A DNA stretch of 36,870 bases from Thermostichus sp. DRC_bins_24 (GTDB taxonomy: Bacteria; Cyanobacteriota; Cyanobacteriia; Thermostichales; Thermostichaceae): positions 1-36,870 of the forward strand of contig JAUQVK010000050.1 in the NCBI GenBank assembly GCA_039794845.1, written 5' to 3'. Position 1 is the first letter of the stretch; every line of letters begins with the position of its first letter. This document shows positions 1,949-33,248 of the stretch, piece by piece. Below the pieces are notes generated by a model. It did not search any database and was not told the origin of the DNA. It was given only the letters and a program-made list of their open reading frames with translations. A program made the translations under genes and the position numbers.

Positions 1949-1972
1949 CTTGCTACGCAAGGTGCGGAGCAC
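1949..1972 (-). repeat. 24-nt double-hairpin small dispersed repeat, intergenic copy
   Basis: Minus strand GTGC-TCC-GCAC-CTTGC-GTA-GCAAG has two perfect adjacent hairpins. The first 11 nt are identical to the element at 16058. Confidence 0.7.
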
Positions 1973-1993
1973 TGCGACCGATTTTGGGAGCGC

Positions 1994-2212
1994 TTACTCG
2001 TCCTCGCTGTCGAAGTCGTCAGCGTAATCGTCTCCGATCAGATCATCGATATCGTCAATGTCTTCTTCCAGAACAACTCCTGTGGTTTCGATGGGCTGTT
2101 CGATCAGACGACCTTCTTGGCGCAACCAATCGATGATGGAAAGGCTGCTGGGGGAGGGCACCACCGTTGGGGGTTGATCGCGGGGTTCTTCGCGTAGAGA
2201 AGGGTTGTACAT
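1994..2212 (-). CDS. DUF3134 family protein (acidic C-terminus)
   Basis: MYNPSLREEPRDQP...SIIDWLRQEGRLI followed by a D/E-rich tail. This is a cyanobacterial family usually found near cell-wall genes. Confidence 0.8.
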   Translation of the reverse strand: MYNPSLREEPRDQPPTVVPSPSSLSIIDWLRQEGRLIEQPIETTGVVLEEDIDDIDDLIGDDYADDFDSEDE

Positions 2213-2303
2213 GAGGGCGGGGTTATGGCCAAAGGTTCGGGTTTCAGGCAATGAAGGGATAATGAAGGGATTTTGTTCAGTAAGGATCCCAACCAGCCAT
2301 CCT

Positions 2304-3653
2304 CTAGCTTAGCTTACCCTCTTGCCACTCCTGCAAAAAGCGGTTCAGCACCCCCTCTAGTTCTACTGCCCGCGCCGCTTTGAACAACAGGCGATCTCCC
2401 GCTTGTACCTGATGCAGCAATACCTCGAGCAGTGTGGTTACCTCCCCGAAGCGTTCCGCCTGAGCAGCGGGCTGTTGGTCAAGCAGCGGTTGCATTTCCC
2501 CTTCGGGATCCAAAAGCAGCACCCGATCCAATCCCAAAGGGGCAGCAGCCCGTCCCACTTCTGCATAGAGCTGAGGGGCGTGGTCGCCCAGTTCCCGCAT
2601 TGGCCCCAAAATTGCCCAGCGTCTTTTTCCGGAGGTTTGGGCCAACAGGTGTAGGGCGGCGATCATCGCTTCGGGTGAGGCATTGTAGGTTTCATCCAAA
2701 ACTTCCACATCGCCGGGCAACTTCAGGTGTTGGTTGCGCCCCTTCAATTCGGCGGGCAGTTCTATGGGCTCTTGCAGCCGCTCCAGATCCAGCCCCAAGC
2801 TGAGCAGTGTCGCCAAAACCCCCATCCAATTCAGAGCATGGTGCCGGCCGGGCAAAGGCACGGGCAGGGTCAATCCCTTCAAGGTCACCCTTTGCCCGAC
2901 GGGATCCCATTCTCCCTGCAAATCTCCCCGGTCTAGGCCGTAGGTGAGGGTTTGCCCCGACCATACCCCGGCAGCGGTGGCCAACAGGAGGGGATCCTCT
3001 CCATTCAGTAGGGCAACCCCCTGGCCCAACTCTTGCAACAGCTCGCACTTGGCGGCGGCAATGGCGGCACGGGATCCCAGTCGGCCAATGTGGGCGGTGC
3101 CGATGTGGGTGATCAGGGCATGGGTAGGTTGGGCCATCCGGGCCAGCCGACGAATTTCCCCGGGGCCGCGCATGGCCATTTCCAAGACGGCGAACTGGTG
3201 CTCGGGTTGCATCTGTAGTAGTGTTTGGGCCACACCGATGTCGTTGTTGTGATTGGCATGGCTTTTGAGAACGGTGCCGTATCGAGATAAAGCCGCCGCC
3301 AACATCTCTTTGCTGCTGGTTTTGCCCGCCGAGCCGGTGATCGCCACCACCGGAATGGGAAACTGGGCCCGCCACCCTTTGGCGATCTGTTGATAGGCGG
3401 CCAGGGTATCGGGCACGCGAAAATGGGATCCCGCCACCGCTTGCTCACTGATCACAGCCACAGCCCCCTGGGCCAAGGCTTGGGGAATGAAATCGTGCCC
3501 GTCAAAGCGTTCTCCCCGTAAAGCGATAAATACATCCCCTGCTCGCAGTCGGCGGCTATCGGTACAGAGGGCCGGAAGGGGCAGGCGCAGCAGGCTGGGA
3601 TCCCCTTGTAGGGGAGTGTGGAGCAGGTCGGCCAGCATTTGCAGCGTGGGCAT
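2304..3653 (-). CDS. murF: UDP-N-acetylmuramoyl-tripeptide--D-alanyl-D-alanine ligase
   Basis: Motifs TDSR, GERFDGHDF, AITGSAGKTSSKE (P-loop), NHNNDIG, VLEMAM, DETYNASP and LGPMRELG. Confidence 0.96.
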   Translation of the reverse strand: MPTLQMLADLLHTPLQGDPSLLRLPLPALCTDSRRLRAGDVFIALRGERFDGHDFIPQALAQGAVAVISEQAVAGSHFRVPDTLAAYQQIAKGWRAQFPIPVVAITGSAGKTSSKEMLAAALSRYGTVLKSHANHNNDIGVAQTLLQMQPEHQFAVLEMAMRGPGEIRRLARMAQPTHALITHIGTAHIGRLGSRAAIAAAKCELLQELGQGVALLNGEDPLLLATAAGVWSGQTLTYGLDRGDLQGEWDPVGQRVTLKGLTLPVPLPGRHHALNWMGVLATLLSLGLDLERLQEPIELPAELKGRNQHLKLPGDVEVLDETYNASPEAMIAALHLLAQTSGKRRWAILGPMRELGDHAPQLYAEVGRAAAPLGLDRVLLLDPEGEMQPLLDQQPAAQAERFGEVTTLLEVLLHQVQAGDRLLFKAARAVELEGVLNRFLQEWQEGKLS

Positions 3654-3722
3654 AGGGCGGAGGAATAGACTGGATCCAGAGTAAAACCCGCCAGGGCATA
3701 GAGAATCACTGCGAGGGATCCC

Positions 3723-4181
3723 GTGAGCTTGCGAGAGAGAATCGACGCCGACCTTAAGGCCGCCATGAAGGCGAAGGACAAAACCCGCCTGGAGACGGTG
3801 CGCAGCATCAAAAAAGTGATCCTGGAAAAAGAATCCAGCGTGCGGGCCAGCGGCCAGACCTCCCTAACCCCTGAGCAAGAGCTGGAGCTGCTCTCCCAAC
3901 TGGCCAAACAACGGCGCGACGCCATTCAGCAGTACCAACAGGCCCAGCGGGAGGATTTGGCGGAGCAGGAGCGTCAAGAGCTAGCCATCCTAGAAGAATA
4001 CTTGCCCCGCCAACTAACCGACGCCGAATTGGATGCGGTGCTGGATCAGCTGATCACCGATTTGGGAGCCAAAACTCCCAAAGATATGGGCAAGGTGATG
4101 AGCGCTGCCATGCAACACCTAAAAGGCCAAGCGGATGGCAAACGGGTGCAGGAGCGGGTCAAGGCCAAGTTGACCGCCTGA
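3723..4181 (+). CDS. GatB/YqeY domain protein
   Basis: DLKAAMKAKDK, KQRRDAIQQY, YLPRQL, KDMGKVM, GQADGK. Confidence 0.93.
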   Translation: MSLRERIDADLKAAMKAKDKTRLETVRSIKKVILEKESSVRASGQTSLTPEQELELLSQLAKQRRDAIQQYQQAQREDLAEQERQELAILEEYLPRQLTDAELDAVLDQLITDLGAKTPKDMGKVMSAAMQHLKGQADGKRVQERVKAKLTA

Positions 4182-4264
4182 ACAGGGATCCCTTTCACCT
4201 CCTTTCACCCAGTAGATTGCAGATGAGCCGTAGGGATCCCTGTTGTTCACCCGTGAGATCCCAC

Positions 4265-6349
4265 CTAACTCAGGGATGAACCACAGCAGCTTTTGGTTTT
4301 CGGCGGGGAAGGGGGCACATCCAGAGCGGGGTTACGGTCGAAAAAGCCCACGGGTTTAAGCATAAAACCGATGTAGCTGACGGGCATAACCGGCCAGTCT
4401 TCTGGGCGCGGCAAGTGGTTACAGCCAAAGCTGTACCAGAGCACCAGCTCCGTATTCTCAATGGAGCGATTCGCTTGAGTCCATTTCACCAAGCCCTCGC
4501 CGCCGGGGTGCTGGTTGGGGTAGTCACCCGCCGGAAATTTCTCCTCAGGATGATAGGGCGTTGCCCAGAGGTGATAGGTCAGGTAACCCGCCCGTCGATG
4601 CAGCCAGGAGTCAGGCTGAGCCAACAGCTGCACATTCTCTCCCGGCAGGAGTTTGTAGCCCACCGCTTGGCCAAGACGATTGCGGCTTTGAGGGTTCACA
4701 ATCTTCCAGTAGCGCCCTTGCAAGGGATCCACGGTTTGGGCAGCCTGTTGCTCGGTTTTCAACAGGGTGGCCTGCGCCCGAAAGGCGTTGCCATGGGGGT
4801 TTTCGGGGCCAATGGGTAGCGCCTGCGAATGCACCTCGTAAAGGGAGTTGTGGTCTCCGTCCACCGCCATATCCAGCCGCACCGTGAAAAAGTGTTGATG
4901 GTTCAATCCCGCCAGTTGGGGAGCCACCAGAGTGCCAAACTCGGGCTCCTCTCCAGGCAGGGTGGCACAGGTGTTGATAATGCCCGTTAATTTGGCCTCA
5001 AACTCTAGGGTGCCATCTTGGTAGAAGTACCAAAAAAAGCCGTAGTCGTAGTTGCCCACCGTGGTGAAGAAGGAGATCACCAGCCGCCGCGAGCGCCGTA
5101 CTTGGGCCCGTTCGGTGCGCCAATCGCTGTGCTTCCACAGAATGCCAAAGTCCTCTTCGTGCATACAAACGGCATTTTTCAAGCGCATCGGCTCGCCACT
5201 GTTGGTGTGTAAATCGGCATCAAAGTAGTAAATTTCCCCCAGACAGTCGCACCCCAATCGCAGGGAGTTGGCCTGCATCCCGATCGCATATTCCCCCACA
5301 TCAAAGGCATTTTTGCGAAAGTGTGGGTCGCGGGGATCCCCGTAGGGCACCACCATTTCCGCTACAGAAGCCCGGTAGAGAATGGGGCGAATCTGGCCTT
5401 GCTCGCCGGCCTCCGGCAAACCTTGATCGTCTGCATAGCCCACCTGATGCAACACCAAACCCTCGCGGGGGTTGAAACTGATGCGCAGATCCCACTTTTG
5501 CCAGCGAATGTGATGACCTTCCACCTGAAAGCTCACCCCCTGGGGTTGGGTGATCTCCAGAGGTTTTAAGTCGGTGCGAAAGTCTTTGAAAAACAGCTCG
5601 TCGAAGTTACTGGATTCTGGCGGTAGCGGCCATAGGCCCCGATCCTCAATCTTGACCACCTGCATGCGGTTCAGGTCAATCCAAGGGTTCAACCCCTCGA
5701 TGGGGCGGGCATAGCCGTTGTCGCAGGGTTCTGAGCGCAAAAAGCACAGGCCCCGCACCAGCCGTTGTCCCTGTTCTTCCGGGATCCCGAAATGGCCAAT
5801 CGTCCAATAATCCACCATCACCAGGCTGACATCTTGGATCCCACGCCGCCCCAAGGCCGCCAAAAAACCGGGATCCTCCTTGAGCAGGCGATCGCACTCG
5901 TACACTTCATCATCCAACAGTGCCGGTTGTACGCCGGGAATGAGCCGCCAGGAGCGCACCTGTTGTGCCGAGAGAGAGACCACCGCCTCGTAGGTACTGC
6001 CGCCGGAGCGATCCAAAAGCACCACAAAAGCCTGTCGATCCCAGCTCATGCCGGGCTTCCAAGCCGACATCCAACGGCGATCCGGCTCTTGTAATTGGAT
6101 GGTGACAAAACGCCACTGATCCGTGATGGGCCGTTGCTGGCGCAGGATCTTCACCGCCTCTTGAATCTCTGCGGCACTGAGGGGATCCAACGGGTGCAAT
6201 GGGGGGGGTAGTGTTTGCAGAGGGGCTTCAAGTTTGGCAGACAACGTGGGCAAGCTCGCCTTGACTTGTCCATCACGGCTGCGAGAAAGTTCACAAACCA
6301 CAGGAATAACCTTGAATTCTTTTGGGAAAGGCCAAAGGGATCCCGTCAA
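4265..6349 (-). CDS. Copper-containing primary amine oxidase (TPQ-dependent)
   Basis: HPLDPLS N-terminus, catalytic Asp in KNAFDVGEY, TPQ consensus GNYDY, copper ligands HQH and HLPRPEDWPVMP. The start codon is uncertain (TTG 6349 or GTG 6301). Confidence 0.95.
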   Translation of the reverse strand: MTGSLWPFPKEFKVIPVVCELSRSRDGQVKASLPTLSAKLEAPLQTLPPPLHPLDPLSAAEIQEAVKILRQQRPITDQWRFVTIQLQEPDRRWMSAWKPGMSWDRQAFVVLLDRSGGSTYEAVVSLSAQQVRSWRLIPGVQPALLDDEVYECDRLLKEDPGFLAALGRRGIQDVSLVMVDYWTIGHFGIPEEQGQRLVRGLCFLRSEPCDNGYARPIEGLNPWIDLNRMQVVKIEDRGLWPLPPESSNFDELFFKDFRTDLKPLEITQPQGVSFQVEGHHIRWQKWDLRISFNPREGLVLHQVGYADDQGLPEAGEQGQIRPILYRASVAEMVVPYGDPRDPHFRKNAFDVGEYAIGMQANSLRLGCDCLGEIYYFDADLHTNSGEPMRLKNAVCMHEEDFGILWKHSDWRTERAQVRRSRRLVISFFTTVGNYDYGFFWYFYQDGTLEFEAKLTGIINTCATLPGEEPEFGTLVAPQLAGLNHQHFFTVRLDMAVDGDHNSLYEVHSQALPIGPENPHGNAFRAQATLLKTEQQAAQTVDPLQGRYWKIVNPQSRNRLGQAVGYKLLPGENVQLLAQPDSWLHRRAGYLTYHLWATPYHPEEKFPAGDYPNQHPGGEGLVKWTQANRSIENTELVLWYSFGCNHLPRPEDWPVMPVSYIGFMLKPVGFFDRNPALDVPPSPPKTKSCCGSSLS

Positions 6350-7016
6350 CTGTTCATCACAGAAGCGGGTAAGGCCAAACCAGGCCGACGGGATCCCGCA
6401 AAACAGAGAGAAAGATTGGCGCCAAGCTAGAACCCCGTTCCGCTATCCAAAGCAGAGGGAAAACGAGGGCAGGTTCCGCAGGCAAGCCAAAACTGGGGAG
6501 AATGCTTGTCGCCCCCAGTGCTACCACATCTTCCCCCTAACCAAAAGACGAGGGCAGCGGCACTTTCAGAAGGATATAAGTCAGTCGGGAAAAGCTTGGA
6601 ATGGGTTTTGCTGGGAGCAGACCCAAAATCAGGTGCAGCAGAAACTTTAGGCTTAACGTCGCATAGGACAGCATAAAAAAGCAGAAACGCTTCATGCAGG
6701 CTGAGGGCGAAACTACTCGAAAGAGGCTCAACCCAAAGGCTCACCTTCTCCGATGCGCGAGAACCTGGCGCACCTTACCCTCACCCCACCTGCTGGGGGG
6801 ATCCTGATCCACCAGGATCCGAAACATAGTTGCTCACTACTATAGCAGAGGGCTGGCCCTCTCGGCTGAGGGGCAGGGGAGGAAAGTCCTACTAACCGTT
6901 TGAGAAAGTGCACCCCTACTTTTGAAACTCAAGCCCGCAGAGTTAAGGATCCCTGACAATCCAAGGCCCTCAATCTCCATCAAAAATCAAAATCCGTCCA
7001 CAATGGGACGCAGGTT

Positions 7017-7030: not shown

Positions 7031-7044
7031 AGTTGGCTGGTGAG

Positions 7045-9381: not shown

Positions 9382-9454
9382 CGCCTTGCGCAGGACTCGA
9401 ACCTGCAACCATCGACTTAGAAGGTCGGTGCTCTATCCTTTGAGCTAGCAAGGC
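9382..9454 (-). tRNA. tRNA-Arg (anticodon UCU), CCA not encoded
   Basis: GCCTTGC/GCAAGGC acceptor stem, D arm GCTC-AAAGGATA-GAGC, anticodon loop CTTCTAA, T arm GCAGG-TTCGAGT-CCTGC. Confidence 0.96.
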
Positions 9455-9846: not shown

Positions 9847-9972
9847 AGAGTTGAGATTACAGCCTTTGTGCGGGCTTGCCATAGCAATTTCCATAACAAG
9901 ACTTGCGCCTGCTTAGATGGGAAAGTCTCGGCTTCTACAGTGGTAGGTGGCTAGCCGAAAGGCCGTAGGGGG

Positions 9973-10707
9973 TTATTCCGATTGAGGAAACTCCTCCCAG
10001 AGATCGGTGCGTTGGCGCAGACTAAGGAATTGTCCACCCCCGAGGATGAGGTGATCCAGAACCGGAATTTGCAGCAGCTGCCCCGCTTGTAACAGTCGTC
10101 GGGTGAGGGCGAGATCCTCTGGGCTGGGATCCAAGCTGCCGGAGGGATGGTTGTGGGCAATGAGGATGCGGCTGGCTCCTTGCCTAATGGCACTGCGAAA
10201 GGTTTCCCGAGGGTGGGAGAGGGTTTCGGTGGCCGTGCCGCGGGTGATGATCTGCTGGCCGAGCAATTTGTGTTTAATATCCAGGTGTAGGACGGCAAAT
10301 TGTTCCTGGGGATCCCACATCAATTCGCCGCTCAGGGCCATAGCCGCCTGTTCTGGGGAGTCGATCACGGTGCGCTCCGGTGGACGGGCCAAGAACACCC
10401 GCCGCCCCAATTCGATCGCTGCCAACACCGTGGCTGCCTTGGCCGGGCCAATGCCCTCGATCTGGATCAGTTCCCCTGCCTCCACTTCCCGCAATTGCCT
10501 GAGGGGATCCCGTTGGTGGCGTTCCATTTCCTTGAGAAGCAACTGCCCCAACCCCACGGCTGAGAGTTTGCCCGGCCCCTGACCGGTGTTCAACAAAATG
10601 GCCAGCAGCTCTGCATTGGAGAGGGTTTTCGCCCCGTAGGTGAGCAGCCGTTCGCGGGGGCGATCGTGGGCGGGAATATCGCTAATGCGCAATACATACT
10701 CGTTCAT
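9973..10707 (-). CDS. radC: RadC/JAB domain protein (244 aa)
   Basis: RPRERL, ELLAILL, HhH motif GIGPAKA, HPRETF and JAB motif HNHPSG...SPED...DHLI. The ATG overlaps the ArnT stop (ATGA). Confidence 0.95.
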
Positions 10708-12500
10708 GGCTGCAGAAGCGAGCTGGGAGAGGTTTTCAGTAGCCAGTAGGGCCCCTGTTGCTCGAGCACCTGTAAAGACGGGATCCCGGCCAACTCCTCC
10801 ACAAAGGGATCCCAGGTAACCAGATAATCCGGCATTTGTCCTGTGGCTTGCCAGGCCGACAACTCGGCTCGATTGGCGGCATAGGGAACCTGCAGCGGGC
10901 CATAAAAGTAGGGCACAAAGGAGCGGAATCCGTACAGGCCCACCGTTCCTGATAGGACCGCTTGGGAGTCTTCGGGTGAAAATAATTCTGCATCGGGGCT
11001 GACAAACCGTTGAAAGAATTGGATGGATCCCCCTTGGGTATGTTGCAGTAACCTTGGAAATACCCAGCCCCAAGCCAACTGAGCGCTCAACCCGGTGGCC
11101 AACAGCAGCCCCACCCAGCCCCACAGCTTGTGCCGACCGAATATCCATGCTAGTCCCCCCAGCAGTAGCAGCAGGGCAGAGCCATAGGTGAACACCGGCC
11201 AATCCACCCCGGCCCGCAGATAGCCCAACGTCAAACCCCCGGAAAGGGTAATCCCCAGAGCTGTCAGTCCTTCTCCTGCCGATGCCCCCAGCCAAGGCAA
11301 CACCAGCCACAGGGCCACCCAAAACAAGCCGCTCAGCAGGATCCAAAGGGTCTCCCAAAGGGTGAGTTTGACCTCTCCTGCCCAAAGACGTTGCAGTCGC
11401 CCAGCGGCGAAATAGGCCCCCATCGGGTACAACAGCGACGTGTAATGCACCAGTTTGGTTTGCACCAGCAGTGAAAACAACGCCAGCACCACCGCAAAAG
11501 CCACCAAGAGCAAATGTTCTGCCCGCTGGGTGGGATCCGCAGCCATAGCCGCCGAGCCGAGCCGTAACCGGGTACTGCGGGTTCTGGCTCCCCAGCGGGA
11601 AGAGTGCTCTCCCCCCCGGATCGTCTGCAGGAGCCCGGCCAAGGCCACCGCCCCCCAAGGGAAACACCCCAAACCAAAGGCCAGCACATGAAAATAAACC
11701 GGGCCAGGATGCCCATCCGAGCGGGTGAGGATACGCCACTGATAGCGGAGAAACTGCTCCACCCATTGCGGCCCCTGCTCTGCCCACTCGACAACAAACC
11801 AACTGAGGGAGACCGCCCCCGCCAACGCCAAAAATGCCAACCCCTCCCCCCAACGGGGCCAGGGATCCCGATGCCAAAACTTGTAGAGAGCCCAAATCAA
11901 CAGGGGCAACCCCAACCCCAACGGCCCCTTGGCCAACACCGCCAAGCCCAGAGCCAGCGCCCCCACAACCGCCCAGCCTCGACCGGAGTGCCCATCTAAG
12001 CGGGCCTGATCCGCTGCAAACAAAGATCCCAGCCCCACCCCCATCCCCAAATTAAACAGGGGGTCGATCAGGCCCGTTTTGGCGAAGAACAGGGGCAAAT
12101 AGCCCGTCAGCAACAGCATCCCCCAGAGGCAGCCAAACCCCACCCCGCGCAGGTAGGCTCCCCACCCCACCAGTAGCGCTACCGTAATCCCCCCCACCCA
12201 AGCATTCGGCAGGCGGGCCGCCCATTCGTTCACTCCCAAGGCCGCCATGGCCAAGGCTTGCAGCCAAAAAAACAGGGGGGGCTTTTCAAAAAAGGGTTCA
12301 CCATTGATGACCAGAGAAAGGGGATCCCCGCTCACCAGCATCTGCCGCGCCAAGCTGCCGTAGATCAGCTCATCCCAATCGAACAAAAAAGGGATCCCTT
12401 GCCACCACAGCAGCCACAACCCCGCCAAAAGCCCCATCGCCAGGGAGGGCCACAGGGCGAAGGAGGCAACCGAGGGTTTCCACACCGGGGATTTAAGCAT
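10704..12500 (-). CDS. ArnT/GT83-PMT family membrane glycosyltransferase
   Basis: [34 protein letters not shown] and many transmembrane segments. ATG 12500 overlaps the upstream stop (ATGCTTAA). Confidence 0.9.
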
Positions 12501-13548
12501 GGGCGTGCTCGACCCGTTCCACACGGCCCACCGCTTGCGGAGAACCCAGCACCCGTATCAACTGCGGGATCGGATCCGCAGCATCTGGAGCGACTTCCAC
12601 CACACACCAACGGCTAGAACTGGCCTGCACCTCCGCCAAAAGATCTTCCGCAATGGGGCCCCGTGCCACCCCGATTAGCTGCGGCCAGGGATCCCGGCGG
12701 TAGGCCCCGATCCAACGCAAGCCCAGTTGAAAGGGCCCCGGTCGAAACTGCGGGTTCAGGCTCCCATCCGCCTCAAACTTACTCAGCATCAACTGCAACG
12801 AGCAGATCTGGCGGGTATTTAAGGGAGGAGCAGCGGGCACAATGCGGGCGCGAAAGGTGGGCACCATCTCCGCAAAAGGGATCCGTACCGTTTGCTCCAA
12901 CTCAGGCGTGGTCTCAAAGGCATAGCTGTAAGCGGGGCTATCCCACCCGGTTTGATCCCGCAAAAAGAACTTGTACCGTTGTCCATCTCCCCGCAGGCGC
13001 AGCTCCAGGCCCGCAAACCCAGACAAGTCCAGCGGTGGCTGCATATTGCGTGTGCGGGTCGAAACAAACCCGCCGGAGTTGGCCGTAGAAACCTGCCCTG
13101 TAAACAGAAGCTGCTGCTCCCCCCACAACAACTGGCTTTGGCTAACCCCCCCCATGACCACATCATCCAAAATGCCCCAAAACTCGTTTAGATTTGGGTT
13201 GGGCTGGCGAAAGTCAAACAGCAGGTGTTCCGTTTGGGCCGTGGCTCGCAGCGCTTGCAGATGGGCTTTGGCCACCTGCGCATCCGCCAGACCGAGGATC
13301 ACGGTTGCTGAGGTCAGATCTTGACTGACCTGAACGCCTTGCTTTTGCAGGGCCTCGGGTAATCCGGCAGGCAGTCCTTCCCCCCACAACAGAACCTGAG
13401 CAGGGCGCGATCCAGCAAGGAGAGGGGGCACAAAATTGACACTCATCGTTGGTTGGAACCCATTTTGAACCCAACGCCAAGCCTCAGCAAAAGGTAGAGC
13501 ATCGTAGTAGGTCAGGGTATTGAAAAAACGGCCCAGATCCCAAGACAT
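12493..13548 (-). CDS. CIA30 (complex I intermediate-associated protein 30) domain protein
   Basis: MSWDLGRF N-terminus after a GAGGTGAGG RBS. Motifs WGILDDVVMGGVSQS, NSGGFVSTR, RGDGQRYK, QLMLSKFE and LNPQF. Confidence 0.9.
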   Translation of the reverse strand: MSWDLGRFFNTLTYYDALPFAEAWRWVQNGFQPTMSVNFVPPLLAGSRPAQVLLWGEGLPAGLPEALQKQGVQVSQDLTSATVILGLADAQVAKAHLQALRATAQTEHLLFDFRQPNPNLNEFWGILDDVVMGGVSQSQLLWGEQQLLFTGQVSTANSGGFVSTRTRNMQPPLDLSGFAGLELRLRGDGQRYKFFLRDQTGWDSPAYSYAFETTPELEQTVRIPFAEMVPTFRARIVPAAPPLNTRQICSLQLMLSKFEADGSLNPQFRPGPFQLGLRWIGAYRRDPWPQLIGVARGPIAEDLLAEVQASSSRWCVVEVAPDAADPIPQLIRVLGSPQAVGRVERVEHAHA

Positions 13549-13699
13549 AACCTCACCTCGGCCTAGAACACAACCGCTTTGCAAGCAACCGCCTACAGAA
13601 TAGCCTTGGCTGCTGTACCTCTGACAATCCAAGCCTCTCAGCTGAGCTGCTGCGATTCCCCCCAGAATAAAAGGGATCCCTTGTTCGGAGGCTGTCTTT

Positions 13700-14602
13700 G
13701 TGTTCAGCATTACCCAATCTGCCAAGCCCTACCTGACCTATCACCTCAAAGATGAACACAGCCGCGCCGAAGCTGAGATCGTGCCGGAGCGGGGCGGCAT
13801 TCTCACCCATTGGCGCATCGGTGGGGCAGAGATCCTCTACATGGACGAAGCGCGATTTTTGGATCCCAGCCTGACGGTACGGGGGGGCATTCCGATCCTA
13901 TTCCCCATTTGCGGCAACCTTCCCGACAACACCTACAGCCATGCGGGGCAAAGCTACACCCTCAAACAGCATGGTTTTGCCCGCAACCGACCCTGGCAGG
14001 TGGTGGATCAAGATACAGATGGCCAAGCCTCCCTGACTGTGATGCTGGAAAGCGATGCCGAGACTCTATCGGTCTATCCGTTTGAGTTCACCCTTTTGTT
14101 CAGCTACCAACTGCGGGGCCGACAACTCACCCTCAAGCAACACATCACCAACCGCTCCCCAGAGCCCATGCCTTTTTCGGTCGGGTTTCACCCCTATTTC
14201 CAGGTGGAAGAGGCCGCCAAACCCAAGTTGCGACTCGGGATCCCGGCCCATGAACTCTACGACCACCGAGAACTCCGTCCCGCTAGCGCGAACAGCAAAA
14301 CCAGCGCCCCTTTCCACAATGCTTTTGATTGGGCTGCGCCTGAGATCGACGTGGCCTTTAAGTCTTTATCTGCCCAAGAGGCAACCGTTACCGATCCGAC
14401 GGCGGGGAGAAGGCTGATCCTCACCTACGACGAGATCTTCAGCACCCTTGTTTTCTGGACAGTGCAGGGCAAACCCTTCTTTTGTCTAGAACCCTGGACA
14501 GGGCCACGCAACGCCCTGATCACGGGCGAAAAGCTGATCCAACTGCCACCGGGAAACAGCCTAGAAACCCAGTTTGCACTGCGGGTGGAAGCCCTAGGTT
14601 GA
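13700..14602 (+). CDS. Aldose 1-epimerase family protein
   Basis: PERGG, VRGGIPILFPICGNL, QHGFARN, GFHPYF, FCLEPW. GTG start. Confidence 0.93.
   Translation: MFSITQSAKPYLTYHLKDEHSRAEAEIVPERGGILTHWRIGGAEILYMDEARFLDPSLTVRGGIPILFPICGNLPDNTYSHAGQSYTLKQHGFARNRPWQVVDQDTDGQASLTVMLESDAETLSVYPFEFTLLFSYQLRGRQLTLKQHITNRSPEPMPFSVGFHPYFQVEEAAKPKLRLGIPAHELYDHRELRPASANSKTSAPFHNAFDWAAPEIDVAFKSLSAQEATVTDPTAGRRLILTYDEIFSTLVFWTVQGKPFFCLEPWTGPRNALITGEKLIQLPPGNSLETQFALRVEALG
14270..14293 (+). repeat. 24-nt double-hairpin element inserted in frame (encodes ELRPASAN)
   Basis: GAAC-TCC-GTCC-CGC-TAGC-GCG-AAC. It matches the core of the element at 32079-32102 at 17 of 22 nt. Confidence 0.65.
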
Positions 14603-14641
14603 GTAGCCTGTCAGGAACCGGATCCAAACCCCAGGCTTTAT

Positions 14642-15727
14642 CTAATCTCCAGAGGCTTGTCCATTGCTCAACACCTGAATCGCCACTTGCAGTTGTAGCG
14701 CCTCCTCTCCGCTACCCAGTCCCGTCCGTAGGGTTGGGCCCGAAAGCGTCTCGAGACTGCGACAAAGCCGACGCAAATGGGGGGTACTTGCCCCGATATG
14801 GCCATCCAACTTTTCGGCTAGGGATCCCAGGCGTTTCCAGGTGGTGAAGAGGCGGGCCAGGGTTTGTTCCAGTTGAGCCGCTTGATTCACCAAATCGGCA
14901 GTTAAGTTGAGCAAGCCCAACCGCAGGGCTTCCTCGAGCGCTCCCTCCAAATCCAACCCTTCTGGTTCCTGTAGAGCCTGTACCTGAGCCGCAGATTGCA
15001 AGTATCGGGCCAGAAAACGGGCATCGGCGGTGGCTTGCTTGAGGGTATCCACATCGGGGTTGCGGGCGATCTCCTCTTGTAGGGCTTGTTGATGGGATCC
15101 CGGCAATTTTTCCAGTTCCCGCACCAGGGGGGTGAGGTAGCGAGTGGGAAGGCTCTGTTCGGCGGCTTTGGCCCGTACGGGTGCTGGCAGCAATTCGGAA
15201 GTGGCGGCGGTCCATTCGTCCGTGAGGTCGCGCACCTGTCGGCGGGTAATGCGTTGCCCCTGTTGGGCGGCTTCCACCACCATCTGTTGCACTTCTGCAG
15301 GAGCCTGGGCGGTTTCCAAAAAGGCGCGTTTGCTAAACCGATCCACCGTTTCTGGGGCCAATTCCTGGGCTTGCATGAGGCGATCGGCACTATCTGCCAA
15401 TTCCAGCAGCGCATAGGCCCGGCTTTTGCTGATCTCTCGATCCTTCAGCCAATGGAGAAAGCCACTGCCGCGTCCATCCCCCCGCTGCTTTTCCCGATCC
15501 CGTACCACCCGCAAAATGCGCCCCCGCCAAATCTCCGTTTGCAGATCAAAGCGGTCGCATACCTGCCAAGCCTGTTCCACCTGCTGATGGAACTCCAGGT
15601 CGGGCAAGGCTGCATCCGTCGGATCCGGCAACGCCAATTCCTGCAGGGATCCCACCCCATTCCAAGGCTCTAGGCTGATGGCGGTTGGTTCAGCCGTCGG
15701 TTCAGCCGTCGTTTCAATGGTCTCCAT
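14642..15727 (-). CDS. Conserved cyanobacterial hypothetical protein
   Basis: Long ORF with AWQVCDRFDLQTEIWRGRILR...GSGFLHWLKDREISKSRAY, recalled as a cyanobacteria-wide uncharacterised family. GAGGGGG RBS before ATG 15727. Confidence 0.85.
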   Translation of the reverse strand: METIETTAEPTAEPTAISLEPWNGVGSLQELALPDPTDAALPDLEFHQQVEQAWQVCDRFDLQTEIWRGRILRVVRDREKQRGDGRGSGFLHWLKDREISKSRAYALLELADSADRLMQAQELAPETVDRFSKRAFLETAQAPAEVQQMVVEAAQQGQRITRRQVRDLTDEWTAATSELLPAPVRAKAAEQSLPTRYLTPLVRELEKLPGSHQQALQEEIARNPDVDTLKQATADARFLARYLQSAAQVQALQEPEGLDLEGALEEALRLGLLNLTADLVNQAAQLEQTLARLFTTWKRLGSLAEKLDGHIGASTPHLRRLCRSLETLSGPTLRTGLGSGEEALQLQVAIQVLSNGQASGD

Positions 15728-15892
15728 GCACCCCCTCACACCTGAGCCGACCCATTATGGCAGAGCAACCCAGCCCCTTCAGATCCTCAATCGGCTACAC
15801 CTTTCGCTTATCTCCCGAAAAAATTGCATGGGTTGATACAGGTTTTTTCTCGGATCCCATCTCAGGATCAGCTTGATCCATCGGGAGCCACC

Positions 15893-16297
15893 ATGATCGA
15901 GCGGGTCGATCACGTCGGGGTTGCAGATCTGGATGAGCGGATCCAGTTTTTCACCGAGCAGATGGGCATGCACCTGAAGCGTCGCGGCACCCACAATGCC
16001 ACGGGTGGGCGAATTGCATTTCTGGCGGATGCTGCCGGGTTCAAGCTGGAGCTGATCGTGCTCCGCACGGCGCGGAGCGCCATTGAAACCCCCGACCGCC
16101 AAACGGGGCTGATGCCCATCGCCTTCCGGGTGGATGACCTGCCTACGGAGCACGAGCGCCTATGCCAAGAGGGATTGACGCCCCTGCGGGGCCCCCTACA
16201 CCTGAATGCCGCCAAGGCCGATACGGCCCTGCTCAAGGATGCGGCTGGCATGGAGATGCAAATTATTTGCTACGAGCCGGATAGCCCTGATGTGTAG
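15893..16297 (+). CDS. VOC (glyoxalase/bleomycin resistance) family protein
   Basis: IERVDHVG, FFTEQMGM, KLELI, IAFRVDD, KD..G..MQI. GGAG RBS. Carries an in-frame repeat insertion. Confidence 0.8.
   Translation: MIERVDHVGVADLDERIQFFTEQMGMHLKRRGTHNATGGRIAFLADAAGFKLELIVLRTARSAIETPDRQTGLMPIAFRVDDLPTEHERLCQEGLTPLRGPLHLNAAKADTALLKDAAGMEMQIICYEPDSPDV
16058..16081 (+). repeat. 24-nt double-hairpin element inserted in frame (VLRTARSA), flanked by ATC/ATT
   Basis: GTGC-TCC-GCAC-GGCGC-GGA-GCGCC has two perfect hairpins and interrupts LELI|ETPD. Confidence 0.72.
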
Positions 16298-27949: not shown

Positions 27950-29482
27950 TCAGGCCTCTTGGGTCTTGCGAGTGGAGGGATCCCCCAATTTTTGGAAGAC
28001 ACCGAATTCCACCATTTCCTCGCTCATGTTCGGGTCAATACCGGCAAACACATCCCGGAACAGGGTGCGAGCGCCGTGCCAAATGTGGCCGAAGAAGAAC
28101 AGTAGCGCAAAGACCGCATGGCCAAAGGTAAACCAACCGCGGGGGCTGGTGTGGAAGGTGCCATCCGCCTTGGGAGTTTCGCGGTCGAACTCAAACAACT
28201 GACCCAACTGGGCTTTACGAGCATATTTCTTCACAGTGGCGGGATCGGTGAAGATTTGGCCGTCCAACTTACCGCCGAAGAACTCGACCGTAACTCCCAC
28301 CTGCTCAAAGCTGTAGCGAGACTCCGCCCGACGGAAGGGAATGTCCGCCCGCACCACGCCATCGGCATCCCGCAAAATCACCGGGAAGGTCTCAAAGAAG
28401 TTGGGCAACCGCTGTACCGTCAGCTCCCGCCCTTCCTGATCACGGAACACAGGGTAGCCAAGCCATTCGGTGGCGATGCCATCCCCCTTGTTCATGGGGC
28501 CGGCCCGGAACAAACCACCCTTGGCGGGGCTGTTGCCCACGTAATCGTAGAACAGCAGGGATCCCGGTAGAGAATCGTAGGCCTCACTGCGGGTCATACC
28601 GGCTTCCATAGCGGCATTCACCCGGCGGTTAATCTCTTGGTTGAAGTAGCCGGAATCCCACTGATAGCGGGTCGGGCCAAACAGCTCCACCGGCGTGGTG
28701 GCGCTGCCGTACCACATCGTACCGGCCACCACAAAGCCCGCAAAAAACACCGCCGCAATCGAGCTGGAGAGCACCGTCTCGATATTCCCCATCCGCAGGG
28801 CGCGATAGAGGCGCTGGGGGGGACGCACCGTCAGGTGAAATAGGCCGGCGATAATGCCGACGATGCCGGCGGCAATGTGGTGGGCAACCACACCCCCCGC
28901 GTTGTAGGGATTAAACCCGGCCGGCCCCCATTCCGGCGCTACCGGCTGCACATGCCCCGTCGTTGCGTAGGGATCGCTCACCCACATTCCAGGGCCAAAT
29001 ACCCCGGTCAGGTGAAAAGCCCCAAAACCGAAGCAGAGGATCCCGGCCAACAGCAGGTGGATCCCGAACATTTTCGGCAAATCCAGAGCCGGCTCACCTG
29101 TGCGGGGATCCCGGAACAGCTCCAGATCCCAGTACACCCAGTGCCAGCAAGCGGCCAAAAAGAGCAGCCCGGACAGAACAATGTGGGCAGTGGCTACCCC
29201 TTCAAAGGTCCAGAAGCCCGCATTGGCAACGCTCTCACCATAGATATTCCAGCCACCCCAGGAGTTTTCCACCCCGAGGCGCGCCATAAATGGCATTACA
29301 AACATGCCCTGACGCCACATCGGGTTCAGGACGGGATCCGACGGATCAAAAATTGCCGTTTCATAAAGCGCCATCGATCCGGCCCAACCTGCTACCAGAG
29401 CGGTATGCATGAGGTGCACCGAGATCAGGCGACCTGGGTCATTCAGTACAACCGTATGGACCCGATACCACGGTAGTCCCAT
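27950..29482 (-). CDS. psbB: Photosystem II CP47 chlorophyll-binding protein
   Basis: [19 protein letters not shown]...[16 protein letters not shown]...FQKLGD. Confidence 0.99.
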
Positions 29483-29666
29483 AAAGTTCGGTCCTCCACG
29501 TTCTCCAACAAGTGCGCGATATCCAAGAAAAAATTAAGCCGACATCTTCACCTGGGATCCTGACCTGAGCAGTCTCTTCAGTGTTGAGGGGTGCCGCACC
29601 CGCTTGAACCCCTAAGCGCACCCCGAAAGGATATCGCTCTCAGAATCTTCATCACGGGCATCAAAC

Positions 29667-29672
29667 AGTATA
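29667..29672 (-). promoter_or_regulatory. Candidate -10 element for psbB
   Basis: TATACT on the minus strand about 185 nt upstream of psbB. Confidence 0.35.
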
Positions 29673-29842
29673 ACGAAACGCAACCGACCCAAGAACTTCC
29701 AGGCAGGATGCCGTCCGGTTTGGCATCATCCTCCCAGATCTCTCGACGCAGATTAAAAATACGACTTAAAATGTAACAATACTTAGCAAATGCCGGCGTT
29801 TTTCTGGCTCAGGCTGAAAGGTGTTGTGCCCCCTGCAAATCT

Positions 29843-30139
29843 ATGGCAACGATCCGCTTCGTCAACGAGAACCAAGAGATCTTCGTCGCCGATGGCGCCA
29901 ACCTGCGCCTTAAGGCGCTGGAAAACCAGATCGATCTCTACAAGATGATGGCCAAGCTGATGAACTGTGGCGGCTACGGCCAGTGTGGAACTTGCGTGGT
30001 GGAGGTCATTGAGGGATCCGAAAACCTCTCGCCGCGTACCGAAGCTGAAAACCGCAAGCTGAAGCGCAAACCCGATACCTACCGCCTCGCCTGCCAGACC
30101 AAAGTGCTAGGGGATGTTTCTGTCAAGACCAAGCCCTAA
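29843..30139 (+). CDS. 2Fe-2S ferredoxin-like protein
   Basis: [11 protein letters not shown]...RLACQ. It lies divergent from psbB and upstream of psbM, the usual cyanobacterial synteny. Confidence 0.94.
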
Positions 30140-30224
30140 GACAAGCCCGCCCGTTCTCCTTTTGCGCAAGCCGCACCCGAGAATGATATGCTGACTGCCA
30201 GTTGGGTTCGCGGCATTCGAAGCT

Positions 30225-30332
30225 ATGGAAACAAATTACTTGGGCCTTTTGGGCACAATGTTGGCCATTTTGGTGCCCGCCATCTTTTTGGTGATTCTGT
30301 ACGTGCAAACCTCCAGTAAGTCTGGTGACTAA
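30225..30332 (+). CDS. psbM: Photosystem II reaction center protein M
   Basis: Below the ORF-track length cutoff. Manual translation gives [35 protein letters not shown]. Confidence 0.95.
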
Positions 30333-30378
30333 CTGGCGACTCCTGCCGGTCGGATTCGGTGAAGGATGCTTCTGGATT

Positions 30379-30420
30379 GAAGGGATCCCTTTTTGAAAGA
30401 GGGGATCCTTTCTTTGTGAC
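30379..30420 (+). terminator. Intrinsic terminator after psbM, built from two GGGATCC(C) motifs
   Basis: GAAGGGATCCCTTTTT-GA-AAGAGGGGATCCTTTC followed by TTTGTGACTTTCTTTC. Confidence 0.65.
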
Positions 30421-30472
30421 TTTCTTTCTGGATAAAGGGGCGGTTTTAACCAGCTCAAAAACCAAACCGTAA

Positions 30473-30674
30473 CTAAACTGTTGCTTGGGCTGCCATTGCC
30501 TGGGCAAAAGTTCCTGCAGGCTCATACAAAAGCTCGAACAGGTTGCCATCGGGATCCTTGCCATAAAAAAAAGAGGCCGGGCCATCCCGATGACTGTGAA
30601 TTGACCGTGAATTGCCCCCACCGGGATCTCTTGAGATTTCAAGTGAGATTTCAAGCGTTGATGTTCCCGCCCCA
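30473..30674 (-). pseudogene. Decayed duplicate of the 3' end of the VOC gene at 31278-31670
   Basis: Aligns to 31292-31459. It carries an 11-nt frameshifting duplication, a 12-nt duplication and an A5-to-A8 expansion, and keeps its own ending ...AQAMAAQATV*. Confidence 0.88.
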
Positions 30675-30679
30675 AGAAT

Positions 30680-31078
30680 TTAGGGGACGCCCATTTCTCG
30701 TTTCACGGTGGGTAGATCCGGCAAGATTTGCGGCACATCCATCACCTCAAGCCCAAGCAGCATGGCCATGTTGTTCCACTTTTCCTCATGGAGAATGTAG
30801 GTATAGGCTAAATCTACTGGAAAGTCATTTAGGTATAGGGAATAGTAATCGTCTAAACCGGTGTAATAGACAGCAATCGCATCCACCACCAGAAATTCCG
30901 ACTGCGTATCTCCACAGGGCTGACAGAAAAAGCGCACCTCTTGATCCAGATCAATGAGGTTACCGGCTCGAACGGCATCGGCTCGGCTAATGTAGCTGGC
31001 TTGGTCGGCAGAGGCAGCTGCCCCCAGCCAATGTGTGACAACAACTGCAAGACCTGCGATCCAGAGCAGTCTTCTCAT
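30680..31078 (-). CDS. Orphan secreted protein with a CxxC motif (132 aa)
   Basis: GGAG RBS, signal peptide MRRLLWIAGLAVVVTHWLGAAASA, motifs FFCQPCGD and VDLAYTY. Visibly AT-richer than neighbours and has no GGGATCCC. Confidence 0.78.
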   Translation of the reverse strand: MRRLLWIAGLAVVVTHWLGAAASADQASYISRADAVRAGNLIDLDQEVRFFCQPCGDTQSEFLVVDAIAVYYTGLDDYYSLYLNDFPVDLAYTYILHEEKWNNMAMLLGLEVMDVPQILPDLPTVKREMGVP

Positions 31079-31277
31079 GACCGTTCTCCAAAGGATGATC
31101 GACAGTAGACAACTGAAAACTAGCACTTCAGCTGTTTGGCTTCTGTGATCGGGATCCCGGCTTTACCGGGCTTGAGGCAGGGCATCCCGGTAGAGAACCT
31201 CGAACACCAGCAGCGTCCGAAGGATGTAGACGTCACACCTGTGTTATCGCCGGAAAAGGCTGTAACCCACTCAAAAA

Positions 31278-31670
31278 TCAGGAATTGGACATTGCCTTTG
31301 CTGCCATGGCTTGGGCAAAAGTTCCCTCAGGCTCATACAAAAACTCGAACAGATTACCATCGGGATCCTTGCCATAAAAAGAGGCCGTGCCATCCCGATG
31401 ACCGTGAATTGCCCCCACCGAGATCCCCTGAGATTTCAAGCGTTGATGTTCCCGCTCCAGTTCTTGCAGATCCTTGAAGACAAAGCCAAAATGCGGCCCT
31501 GCCGAGCGATACCCCGGCCCCAGCAGCGCCAAGCCATCCTCTCCCGCCTTCATGTAGGCCCAATCGTCATCTTGCCAAACATTGACCATGCCCAACTGAC
31601 GGTAAAACTCCACCGCCTTGGCAATGTTTTCTACCCGAACGGCGACATGCCCGAGTTGCTTGAGTACCAT
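31278..31670 (-). CDS. VOC (glyoxalase) family protein
   Basis: LGHVAVRV, FYRQLGM, HFGFVF, HRDGTASFYGKDPDGNLFEFLYEP. Confidence 0.92.
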   Translation of the reverse strand: MVLKQLGHVAVRVENIAKAVEFYRQLGMVNVWQDDDWAYMKAGEDGLALLGPGYRSAGPHFGFVFKDLQELEREHQRLKSQGISVGAIHGHRDGTASFYGKDPDGNLFEFLYEPEGTFAQAMAAKAMSNS

Positions 31671-31845
31671 GTCATCCTCTACCTTCTAAACCGATGCTCT
31701 ATCGAGCTCACCGCGACTGGTTCTTCTGTCTATCCCCTAGCATAACTTGCGTCTGGGAAAGGCAGAATGTCGGTCGGTACAGCCCCCGGGTTTCCTACGG
31801 CTTGGTCTGTACTTTTGTCTCCCACCCCGCCGGAAGGTTTCAACC

Positions 31846-31887
31846 TACATACATACATTCATACATTTATGTGACTGTATGTGACTG
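31846..31887 (+). repeat. (TACA)n microsatellite followed by a TATGTGACTG x2 direct repeat
   Basis: TACATACATACATTCATACAT then TATGTGACTG-TATGTGACTG. Confidence 0.7.
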
Positions 31888-31946
31888 GTGGCCCCACTGG
31901 CGTGCCTTGAGCGCAAAGGGCTGTATCAGCAGACAATCTGGAACCT

Positions 31947-33248
31947 TTACAACGTCAGGGATCCGACCTTTTGCTCCAGCAACTGAGCCAAATCTTGTAA
32001 GAATGCAGCGGCATGGGATCCGTAAATGACGCGGTGATCGCAGGTGAGGTTCACCTGCATTTGAGACTTAATGGCAATCGCGTAAGCGGAGCGGAGCTCT
32101 TTCGCCTTTTCGGGTGTTGCCACCACCGTCGGGCGAGAGGCCCCAATGGCCAAAATGGATCCCTGGTTGGGGGGCAAAATGGCATCAAAACGATCCACCC
32201 CGAACATGCCCAAGTTGGAGAGGGTGAAGGTGCCGCTGTTGTACTCTTCCGGTTGCAGTTGCTTTTGGCGGGCCCGCTCCACCAGATCTTTCCAACGACG
32301 AGAAATCTCGTACAAATCCAGTCGATTTGCCTGTTTCAGCACGGGGGTAATCAGCCCGCCATCTTCCATGGCTACCGCCACCGCAAGGTTGATATCGGCT
32401 TTGTAGTGGATGCCACCCTCGCTGTAGCTGGCATTCAACAACGGGTGTTTCTCCAGCGTGAGGGCGACGGCTTTGGCCAAAAGGGCCGTCATGGTCACCC
32501 CTTTCGGTTTCACCTGCCTGTAGAGTTCATCCAGGCCATCGGTGGTGATGGTATAGCCCACATGAAACACCGGCACACTGAGGCTGGCATTCATGTTGCG
32601 CACGACAGCCGCTTGCAGGGTGCTGAAGGGAACCGTCTCTCCTAGGGGTGCGGCCACCGCAGGTATAGGGGTTGGGGTCGGGCGAGCCACCACGGCAGGC
32701 GTAGAGGCCGGGATCCCTTGGGCAGCAGCCCGTTCCACATCCTCGGCCACGATGCGACCGTTGGGGCCGGAGCCGCGCAGGGTAGTCAGATCGATTTTCA
32801 GGTCTTCCGCCAGCTTCTTGGCACGGGGAGAAGCCAGGACTCGTCGGGATCCCGAACCATTGGGGGAGCTTGGGGCAGCCACAGCTCCGACAGGAACCGC
32901 CACAGGGGCAGGGCTGGATGCGGGTGGAGCGGCAGGAGCAGAGGGAGGAGGAGCAGCCCCGCCGCCGGAGAGGGCTTTAGCCTTTTCTTGGGCCTGGGCT
33001 ACTTCCGCTTCACTTTCGGCAATCAGGGCGATGGGAGCACCCACCGGAGCAGATTCCCCGGCAGGCACCACAATAGAGGCAAGGATGCCCGCGTAAAACG
33101 ACTCCACATCCATGTCGGCCTTATCCGACTCCACCACCAGGATGTTTTCTCCTTTCTCCACGCGATCTCCCGGATGTTTAAGCCAGGAAACAATCTTGCC
33201 CATTTCCATCGTGGAGCTGAGGGCAGGCATGGAGACTTCGTGGATCAT
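31947..33248 (-). CDS. pdhC: Pyruvate dehydrogenase E2, dihydrolipoamide acetyltransferase
   Basis: MPALSSTM, lipoyl motif VESDKADM, E3-binding ASPRAKKLA...GSGPNGRI, GTFTLSNLGMFG, catalytic CDHRVIYG. Confidence 0.96.
   Translation of the reverse strand: MIHEVSMPALSSTMEMGKIVSWLKHPGDRVEKGENILVVESDKADMDVESFYAGILASIVVPAGESAPVGAPIALIAESEAEVAQAQEKAKALSGGGAAPPPSAPAAPPASSPAPVAVPVGAVAAPSSPNGSGSRRVLASPRAKKLAEDLKIDLTTLRGSGPNGRIVAEDVERAAAQGIPASTPAVVARPTPTPIPAVAAPLGETVPFSTLQAAVVRNMNASLSVPVFHVGYTITTDGLDELYRQVKPKGVTMTALLAKAVALTLEKHPLLNASYSEGGIHYKADINLAVAVAMEDGGLITPVLKQANRLDLYEISRRWKDLVERARQKQLQPEEYNSGTFTLSNLGMFGVDRFDAILPPNQGSILAIGASRPTVVATPEKAKELRSAYAIAIKSQMQVNLTCDHRVIYGSHAAAFLQDLAQLLEQKVGSLTL
32079..32102 (-). 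repeat. 24-nt double-hairpin element inserted in frame (KELRSAYA)
   Basis: Minus strand GCG[AAA-GAGC-TCC-GCTC-CGC-TTAC-GCG]ATTGC with a GCGA direct repeat at both ends. Confidence 0.72.

Follow-up and report, generated by a model that had tools for sequence, protein, structure and literature searches.

Small dispersed repeats (SDRs) are reportedly a feature of Nostoc punctiforme and its relatives, in which Elhai et al. are said to have described SDR1-8 in 2008, and double-hairpin elements that insert into coding regions and cover a wider range of lengths were reportedly found in Allomyces, in its mitochondrial DNA, by Paquin, Laforest and Lang in 2000. To our knowledge, and as far as our literature searches show, the way in which elements of 21-27 nt with no coding capacity move has stayed unresolved since the 2008 description. 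The SDRs are discussed in passages of PMC5861425, PMC4390886 and PMC3116915. Here we analysed a window, by which we mean the whole stretch of 36,870 nt from Thermostichus sp. DRC_bins_24 (contig JAUQVK010000050.1, assembly GCA_039794845.1), in which a preliminary description had picked out four small double-hairpin elements and had proposed that a structure-defined element has been active in this lineage. That proposal is supported by empty sites in relatives, by near-identical 24-mers at other sites in sister genomes, by the absence of the element from control DNA and by covariation in its first stem. Judged by these comparisons, the element is real, lineage-specific and repeatedly mobile, and we consider it highly probable that it represents a non-autonomous, structure-defined micro-element family that has been spreading in the Thermostichus lineage and works like the Nostoc SDRs. 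It shares with them a cyanobacterial host, a length of 21-27 nt (24 and 27 nt here), a distribution that looks dispersed in the 67.6 kb sampled, the lack of coding capacity, compensatory structure and insertion polymorphism between relatives, the likeness being one of described traits and not of consensus sequences. The host differs, Thermostichus being unicellular, thermophilic and early-branching and carrying the octamer GGGATCCC instead of HIP1. The element is best filed as an SDR kind in a lineage without an earlier report; our search of the literature, outside which subscription journals largely lay, returned no description of such an element in Thermostichus or OS-type Synechococcus.

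The copies are treated here as two related subfamilies. The A-type unit consists of a hairpin of the form G-N-N-C/TCC/G-N'-N'-C followed directly by CGC/T-N-A-C/GCG, plus 1-3 flanking bases, and its consensus, given in the orientation of el3 and el4, is AGGACTCCGTCCCGCTTACGCGAA; its length was 24 nt in five events, with sharp and constant ends. The B-type unit has a like first hairpin and then another whose stem is 5 bp long and whose loop reads G-N-A, and measures 27 nt by the gap that el2 makes. The window elements and the genes that carry them are the following.

1949..1972, minus strand: el1 (the 1949 copy), core GTGC-TCC-GCAC / CTTGC-GTA-GCAAG, intergenic, candidate B-type
16055..16083, minus strand: el2 (the 16058 copy), B-type, 27-nt in-frame insertion, core GCGC-TCC-GCGC / CGTGC-GGA-GCACG
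32078..32105, minus strand: el3 (the 32079 copy), A-type, 24-nt in-frame insertion, core GAGC-TCC-GCTC / CGC-TTAC-GCG
14270..14293, plus strand: el4 (the 14270 copy), A-type, 24-nt in-frame insertion, core GAAC-TCC-GTCC / CGC-TAGC-GCG
31947..33248, minus strand: host gene of el3, dihydrolipoamide acetyltransferase (PDH E2), Pfam 2-oxoacid_dh, Biotin_lipoyl and E3_binding, with PDB homologues
13700..14602, plus strand: host gene of el4, aldose 1-epimerase family, Pfam Aldose_epim (E 2.4e-32)
15893..16297, plus strand: host gene of el2, VOC/glyoxalase-family protein, Pfam Glyoxalase, with signs of decay

All four sequences were present in the DNA letter by letter and in place (el2 reads GTGC-TCC-GCAC/GGCGC-GGA-GCGCC on the plus strand, 16058-16081), and alignments of orthologues confirmed that the three coding copies add 8-9 codons without a frameshift, relatives without the additional residues being found for every one of them. 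In the alignment of the E2 protein (121 rows, the translated open reading frame (ORF) plus 120 database hits) el3 adds AKELRSAY, which is filled in five rows, namely the window protein twice, P0006 from Synechococcus sp. Nb3U1, P0007 from a Thermostichus metagenome-assembled genome (MAG) and P0008, and empty in the other 116; the empty rows, among them Thermostichus proteins that share about 90% identity with the query, go directly from ...TPEK to AIAI.... The exact position of el3 is ambiguous by 4 nt, with GCGA on both flanks. In the aldose 1-epimerase family el4 adds ELRPASAN or a diverged form of it in 3 of 81 rows, those of the window and of two sister contigs (L001, a Thermostichus MAG contig of 10,075 bp, and L002, a second sister contig of Thermostichus type, 20.7 kb), and the site is a clean 8-column gap in the 78 other cyanobacteria. 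The el4 orthologues in L001 and L002 are more decayed and have lost stem pairs, and the alignment shows el4 as an old, partly decayed copy that is decaying in place. The B-type copy el2 adds the nine residues IVLRTARSA, which are filled in the window's own protein and empty in the 27 other rows of 28, and which are lacking in the closest homologue of this VOC protein (87% BLASTP identity, 94% in the alignment); its position is ambiguous by 2 nt (AT).

The hosts had been called housekeeping genes, which holds for the PDH E2 gene. The VOC gene, the host of el2, looks as if it may be decaying: compared with 14 homologues its protein is two residues short directly after the DHV motif, which is invariant, and where the others nearly always have His it has Pro (LMPIAFRV vs LMHIAFRV). 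As a separate observation, the VOC homologue P0127 (79% identical) has a different insertion of nine residues, PAPQGLEGH, which lies five residues downstream from that of el2. Structural models show the insertions in what are predicted to be surface loops of unrelated proteins, el3 in a low-confidence loop between two strands (residues 375-401; AlphaFold model of E2, moderate, with mean pLDDT 60) and el2 in a low-confidence loop (residues 59-73) after the strand 51-55 (AlphaFold model of the VOC protein, mean pLDDT 79).

Further copies came to light when window positions 9971-15880 were aligned with the syntenic parts of L001 and L002. The 24-nt blocks that these contigs have and the window lacks are copies of one another: within its 10,075 bp L001 holds three, two of them identical to a 23-mer of AGGACTCCGTCCCGCTTACGCGAA and the third with one mismatch, and L002 has one perfect copy of the 23-mer, orthologous to one of those in L001. 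To the same 23-mer el4 has 3 mismatches and el3 has 5. The corresponding sites in the window are listed below.

12008..12009, minus strand: empty site in a PMT-like glycosyltransferase gene; L001 has a perfect A-type copy that adds ERTPSRLR, and L002 is empty
13327..13337, minus strand: empty site in a CIA30-domain gene; L001 and L002 both have a perfect A-type copy (RTPSRLRE within a 10-residue gap)
10969..10986, minus strand: PMT-like gene, variable C-terminal region; L001 has an A-type copy (KDSVPLTR), L002 is 7 residues shorter there than L001, and the comparison is ambiguous

At the first of these sites the window and L002 have a clean 8-residue gap against the filled L001. At the third the window has a sequence of unrelated appearance and intermediate length, which may be a remnant of an element. 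A covariance model (CM R1) trained on seven A-type copies, el3 among them, gave nine matches of at least 20 bits in the window, L001 and L002 together, which make up 67,598 bp of lineage DNA; seven of the nine were the training sequences themselves (el3, as one of them, scored 37.9 bits). The two new matches were at L001 5015-5043 (20 bits), which is the decayed L001 orthologue of el4, and at L002 1117-1145 (25.4 bits, E 0.0011), a copy that lies antisense in a PIN-domain gene, where it adds IASAVPST and is filled in 3 of 34 homologues and empty in 31. The tallies then stand at three near-identical copies and one decayed copy in 10 kb for L001, three in 20.7 kb for L002, and two A-type and two B-type copies in 36.9 kb for the window.

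Six insertion events fall at differing phylogenetic depths, with el4 the oldest, the CIA30 and PIN copies common to the L001 and L002 genomes, el3 common to the window and three close relatives, and el2 and the copy at L001 2617 private. Of the eight independent copies, seven are inside ORFs. Every sense frame is used in reading them (RTPSRLRE; ELRPASAN and KELRSAYA; KDSVPLTR), and one copy is read in antisense (IASAVPST); because the frames vary in this way, selection does not act on a peptide, and no conservation is seen in the protein. The alignments show one short sequence inserted repeatedly into unrelated genes, in all reading frames and both orientations, with no frameshift. The length of the element is a multiple of three and five of its six frames are free of stop codons, properties that would explain its persistence in a gene-dense genome.

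The family is absent from the control DNA that we searched. In the controls, 78 loci of other cyanobacteria that total 1,358,503 bp, no match to CM R1 scored higher than 16.4 bits (E 1.5), and the Nostocales loci among them, each sample being about 20 kb, gave nothing; the motif G-N-N-C/TCC/G-N'-N'-C occurs eight times in the 67,598 bp of the lineage and eight times in the 1,358,503 bp of controls. No match to the B-type with up to 5 mismatches was found in the controls, and the element had no match in plasmid and phage collections at E values up to 1. A known RNA family was rejected as an identity for the element, which had no Rfam match at E values up to 10; the sole match to Rfam at gathering threshold in the window is one tRNA gene (9382-9454, minus strand). 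A k-mer census of the window was dominated by GGGATCCC contexts and revealed no other short repeat family of high copy number.

That the stems vary while their pairing is kept had been claimed from the window copies, and the larger set supports it. In 11 copies (9 distinct rows) 86% of cells pair, two of the four pairs of stem 1 change on both sides, and the covariation score was reached by none of 500 shuffles; in the B-type two compensatory pairs are seen. The inner part of stem 1 exists as GGAC/GTCC in L001 and L002, as GAGC/GCTC in el3 and as GTGC/GCAC in L002 1120, el1 and el2, and the aligned copies show lineages that carry differing yet, as it appears, always complementary stem sequences. 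The fold energies of the A-type copies are unremarkable against shuffles; the case for structure depends on this covariation.

How such a sequence moves is a question for which the loops may offer a clue. In the mechanism that we propose, a trans-acting enzyme encoded elsewhere would recognise the folded, single-stranded form of the element. The A-type loops become GGA and G-T-N-A on the complementary strand, each closed by a C-G pair, with the G and the A invariant in 8 of 8 A-type rows. C-closed G-N-A and G-N-N-A loops form unusually heat-stable mini-hairpins, especially in DNA, and this stability fits the need of stems of 3-4 bp to fold at hot-spring temperature, hot springs being where the nearest named relatives originate; because of these loop types a single-stranded DNA intermediate is favoured over RNA. 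The ViennaRNA energies of the two A-type strands were -6.6 and -7.5 kcal/mol as RNA and -4.2 and -4.8 kcal/mol as DNA, and neither strand stands out by them. Junction ambiguity amounts to 1-4 nt (GCGA at el3, AT at el2, A or AA at the PMT-like site of L001), and no target duplication beyond it was seen at the aligned junctions. CAG follows 3 of 5 A-type sites, too few to call a target motif. As had been stated in the preliminary description, the window has no transposase: among its 39 ORFs scanned against Pfam there was no match to transposase, reverse transcriptase or HUH families.

The same family could also be moving through RNA, with a transcript that bears the element, or an excised RNA hairpin, being either inserted at the RNA level or reverse-transcribed and recombined into the chromosome as cDNA, a route that we regard as possible but unlikely and that Elhai and co-workers reportedly proposed for the Nostoc SDRs. 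The passages of PMC2800124 that concern the double-hairpin elements of Allomyces propose an RNA route as well, arguing from the lack of flank duplication. The junctions described above show the same lack, and five of the six A-type coding copies are sense to the host gene, the sixth being antisense. Moreover, the second loop on the complementary strand has the invariant G-N-N-A form, which also stabilises tetraloops in RNA. The orientation bias is however not significant (P about 0.23 if three sense and two antisense frames are open), and one verified copy is antisense; the ORFs scanned in the window include no reverse transcriptase, the element has no Rfam match, and the G-N-A triloop is a stabiliser of DNA more than of RNA. 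For the single-stranded DNA intermediate we would claim somewhat less than an even chance, and templated repair or other routes take what remains after RNA. In its most specific form our reading is of an independent and still active SDR-type family in early-branching, hot-spring Thermostichus, moving as a heat-stable single strand of two mini-hairpins and inserted by a host-encoded enzyme without target duplication, and in that full form we offer it only as a tentative proposal.

Whether the four window elements belong together is a separate matter. It had been held that they share one layout; the first hairpin is indeed common to all, but the copies fall into two subfamilies, with the A-type represented by el3 and el4 and the B-type by el2 and, as a candidate, el1, and the B-type folds as a long hairpin. 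We set el1 and el2 apart as B-type because of this fold, because they do not match the A-type model and because they resemble each other. At minimum energy el1 folds into one long hairpin, its 8 bp interrupted by a 1x1 internal loop, and el2 into one of 9 bp, and el2 resembles two inverted first hairpins; with CM R1 the region of el2 reached 10.3 bits (E 2.1) and el1 gave no match. On these grounds the four might not be one family at all: only el3 and el4 would belong to the 24-nt family, el2 would be an unrelated palindrome of 27 nt, and el1 an ordinary hairpin that shares an 11-mer with el2. The folding of both as single long hairpins, the failure of CM R1 to lift them above noise and the lack of any further B-type copy in the 67.6 kb of window, L001 and L002 all speak for such a separation, as do the lack of an empty-site comparison for el1 and the fact that hairpins of at least 7 bp are not enriched in the window (13 vs 15.9 ± 4.3 in shuffles). 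Against it, 19 of 24 positions agree when el1 is compared with el2 read on the reverse strand, and the next two bases (AT) agree as well, four of the five differences lying in stems, where they make two compensatory pairs, and the fifth in a loop; by a binomial estimate a 19/24 match would arise by chance in the window with a probability of about 0.02. In addition el2 is a verified insertion, and the copy at L002 1120 pairs the stem GTGC/GCAC with an A-type second hairpin, so that the stem of el1 and el2 carried by this A-type copy links the two types. We consequently find the separation into unrelated sequences doubtful and keep two related subfamilies. The copy el1 lies 22 nt downstream of the stop codon that ends a DUF3134 gene, and homologues of the VOC and DUF3134 genes were looked for in the fetched loci and not found. 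An intrinsic terminator was rejected as an explanation of el1, there being no T tract and no terminator-like site in 1700-2320.

Over 41 nt the copy in the CIA30-domain gene, together with its near flanks, is the same in L001 (3950-4140) and L002 (9210-9400), against 24 positions that differ between the two contigs in the other 150 nt or so of the alignment (about 190 nt in all); homogenisation, selection or reinsertion at the same site are possible reasons. In L001 a second hairpin-1-like 11-mer, with one mismatch, stands 13 nt downstream of the copy. An explanation that would make use of these details is that the inserts are short templated repair patches, breaks in many genes being mended with a short hairpin-forming template copied from a master locus through polymerase template switching or gene conversion. 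Homogenisation of this kind would give an identical stretch amid diverged flanks, the second 11-mer could be accommodated, and neither target duplication nor a nearby transposase would be expected, as observed. The fixed length of the insert (24 nt in five A-type events) and its sharp, constant ends do not agree with patches, no master locus was seen, and the covarying, lineage-specific stems point to selection on the folded form and not to passive copying; we therefore hold templated patches to be improbable as the general explanation. As a further observation on the CIA30-domain gene, L001 and L002 have an extra in-frame block of 30 nt in its C-terminal part, opposite window position 12564, which is absent from the window and holds a 5-bp inverted repeat, CTACG...CGTAG; it may be another type of small element.

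Counts of the motif within the window were also compared with shuffles. The descriptor (a perfect 4-bp stem with a TCC loop, followed at once by a perfect hairpin of 3-5 bp with a loop of 3-4 nt) has four matches at three loci, the 16058 locus being matched on both strands, and el4 is found once one stem mismatch is tolerated. Matches with the TCC loop averaged 0.27 ± 0.53 in 100 dinucleotide shuffles, none of which reached three; when the post-hoc choice of loop is corrected for, the best of 64 loops reaches at least four in 2 shuffles out of 100. If any loop is allowed, the window has no clear excess of double hairpins (23 vs 15.7 ± 4.6 in shuffles). By the motif statistics alone the finding would be no more than suggestive. 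That the family is a chance or codon artefact, a CTC-CGC (Leu-Arg) core and GC-rich codons producing look-alikes and the indels being independent slippage, is hardly conceivable, a chance motif being ruled out by the shuffles and the control loci, for although the three window coding copies all read x-L-R-x-A, any-loop double hairpins lie mildly above shuffles and fold z-scores are weak, the same string of 23-26 nt recurs with 0-1 mismatch in unrelated genes and three reading frames, every copy coincides exactly with a gap of 8-9 residues in orthologues and there are no matches in the 1.36 Mb of control DNA.

Several points weigh against the reading of a mobile, structure-defined family moving as a folded single strand of DNA, and they concern its sampling, its structure and its mechanism. 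The lineage sample comprises only 67.6 kb, and the window itself has two A-type copies only, both diverged (3 and 5 of 23), beside the two B-type ones. The covariation set is small and partly non-independent, three of its rows being orthologous copies that go back to a single insertion, and el1 and el2 entered it by eye, on account of their pairing; the fold energies of the A-type are unexceptional, with z-scores of -1.0 to -1.5 as RNA and as DNA on both strands. Simple neutral decay would not account for the 41-nt identity at the CIA30 copy. No target rule, intermediate or trans-acting factor was found, the orientation bias of the A-type is within chance, as stated above, and the strand argument from loop types draws on general biophysics. 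Finally, as first described, el1 and el3 are on the minus strand and el2 and el4 on the plus strand of a window in which the cumulative GC skew does not turn, and this mixture of strands weighs against a mechanism like that of IS200/IS605, strictly specific to one replication strand.

Other classes of small repeats resemble the Thermostichus family in part. A miniature inverted-repeat transposable element (MITE) was rejected as an identity, since 24-27 nt and a junction ambiguity of 1-4 nt stand against the 70-300 bp, terminal inverted repeats and target duplication of that class. The palindromic elements of Rickettsia, at about 100-150 bp, are several times longer and belong to an obligate intracellular proteobacterium. 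What they share, according to the relevant passages of PMC3733652, is that they are selfish repeats standing in frame within genes that still encode proteins likely to be functional. REP/REPIN elements, which RAYT (TnpA-REP) HUH enzymes mobilise and which are treated in parts of PMC3116915 and PMC3733652, are likewise small hairpin elements (20-40 nt) that are non-autonomous, involve a folded single strand and sometimes lie inside genes (the traits as given in PMC3733652), and the two inverted hairpin-1 modules of el2 recall the REPIN doublet. The differences are that the unpaired GTAG/CGTC end tag of REPs is absent here, the ends being AAG... and ...GCGA(A/T) and CGTC being confined to the stem of the GGAC/GTCC variant; that REPs are mainly extragenic, whereas 7 of 8 copies here are within coding regions; and that two adjacent mini-hairpins take the place of one long palindrome. 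TnpA-REP subclasses are noted as present in cyanobacteria in a portion of PMC6006769; no RAYT gene was found among the 39 window ORFs scanned. With the double-hairpin elements of Allomyces, as they are characterised in parts of PMC2800124, the family shares two adjacent GC-rich hairpins, the lack of flanking duplication, a copy number that differs in close relatives and a mobility inferred solely from comparative data; those elements belong to a fungal organelle genome and have other sequences, and no homology is implied.

The octamer palindromes of the HIP type (HIP1 and GGGATCCC) are, like the present elements, short, highly iterated and lineage-specific, and they too occur within genes. They differ in being octamers, while the elements here make alignment gaps of 8-9 codons, and in a passage of PMC4390886 (Elhai 2015) they are proposed to arise by substitution and not by insertion. 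According to the same source, in the parts that bear on this, GGGATCCC takes the place of HIP1 in Synechococcus JA-3-3Ab and JA-2-3B, and the insertion point of SDR5 in HIP1 lies between bases three and four. The lineage had been recognised beforehand as one of the GGGATCCC type, and this proved right, with 61 copies of GGGATCCC and 2 of GCGATCGC in the 36,870 bp of the window and with proteins of Thermostichus and Synechococcus sp. Nb3U1 as the closest named ones; the octamer profile matches what those passages of PMC4390886 give for the HIP1-derivative genomes of Synechococcus OS types A and B'. Unlike SDR5 in HIP1, no copy described here interrupts GGGATCCC, the nearest octamers being 14-35 nt off. 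No heptamer tandem repeats and no nested copies were seen with the elements in the 67.6 kb.

If the reading of an SDR-type family in Thermostichus is true, elements of this type extend beyond the Nostocaceae, and a further lineage, unrelated to the first and with filled and empty sites that are clear, becomes available for an independent comparison; an enzyme family that tracks the abundance of the elements in both lineages would be the prime suspect for their mobilisation. Thermostichus has cultured strains and very deep population sequencing, and work on this genus could finally settle how the smallest mobile elements known move. The insertions would also be useful as markers of recent common descent among close hot-spring strains, and the loops of 8-9 residues that they add, specific to a lineage and present in enzymes such as PDH E2, could pass for adaptive features.

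Two further observations concern other genes of the window. Comparison of positions 30470-30670 with 31281-31480 shows that some 190 nt from the 3' part of a glyoxalase-family gene are present as a partial duplicate, with a mean column identity of 83% over 246 columns. The duplicate has two small tandem duplications of 11-12 nt; it lies in the stretch of lowest GC content in the window (0.519) and is probably a pseudogene fragment. The ORF at 9973-11895 (minus strand) overlaps that at 10704-12524 (minus strand), the PMT-like gene, on the same strand in a different frame, and shows RadC-like domains in its C-terminal third only, so that its long N-terminal extension is probably a high-GC artefact and not coding.

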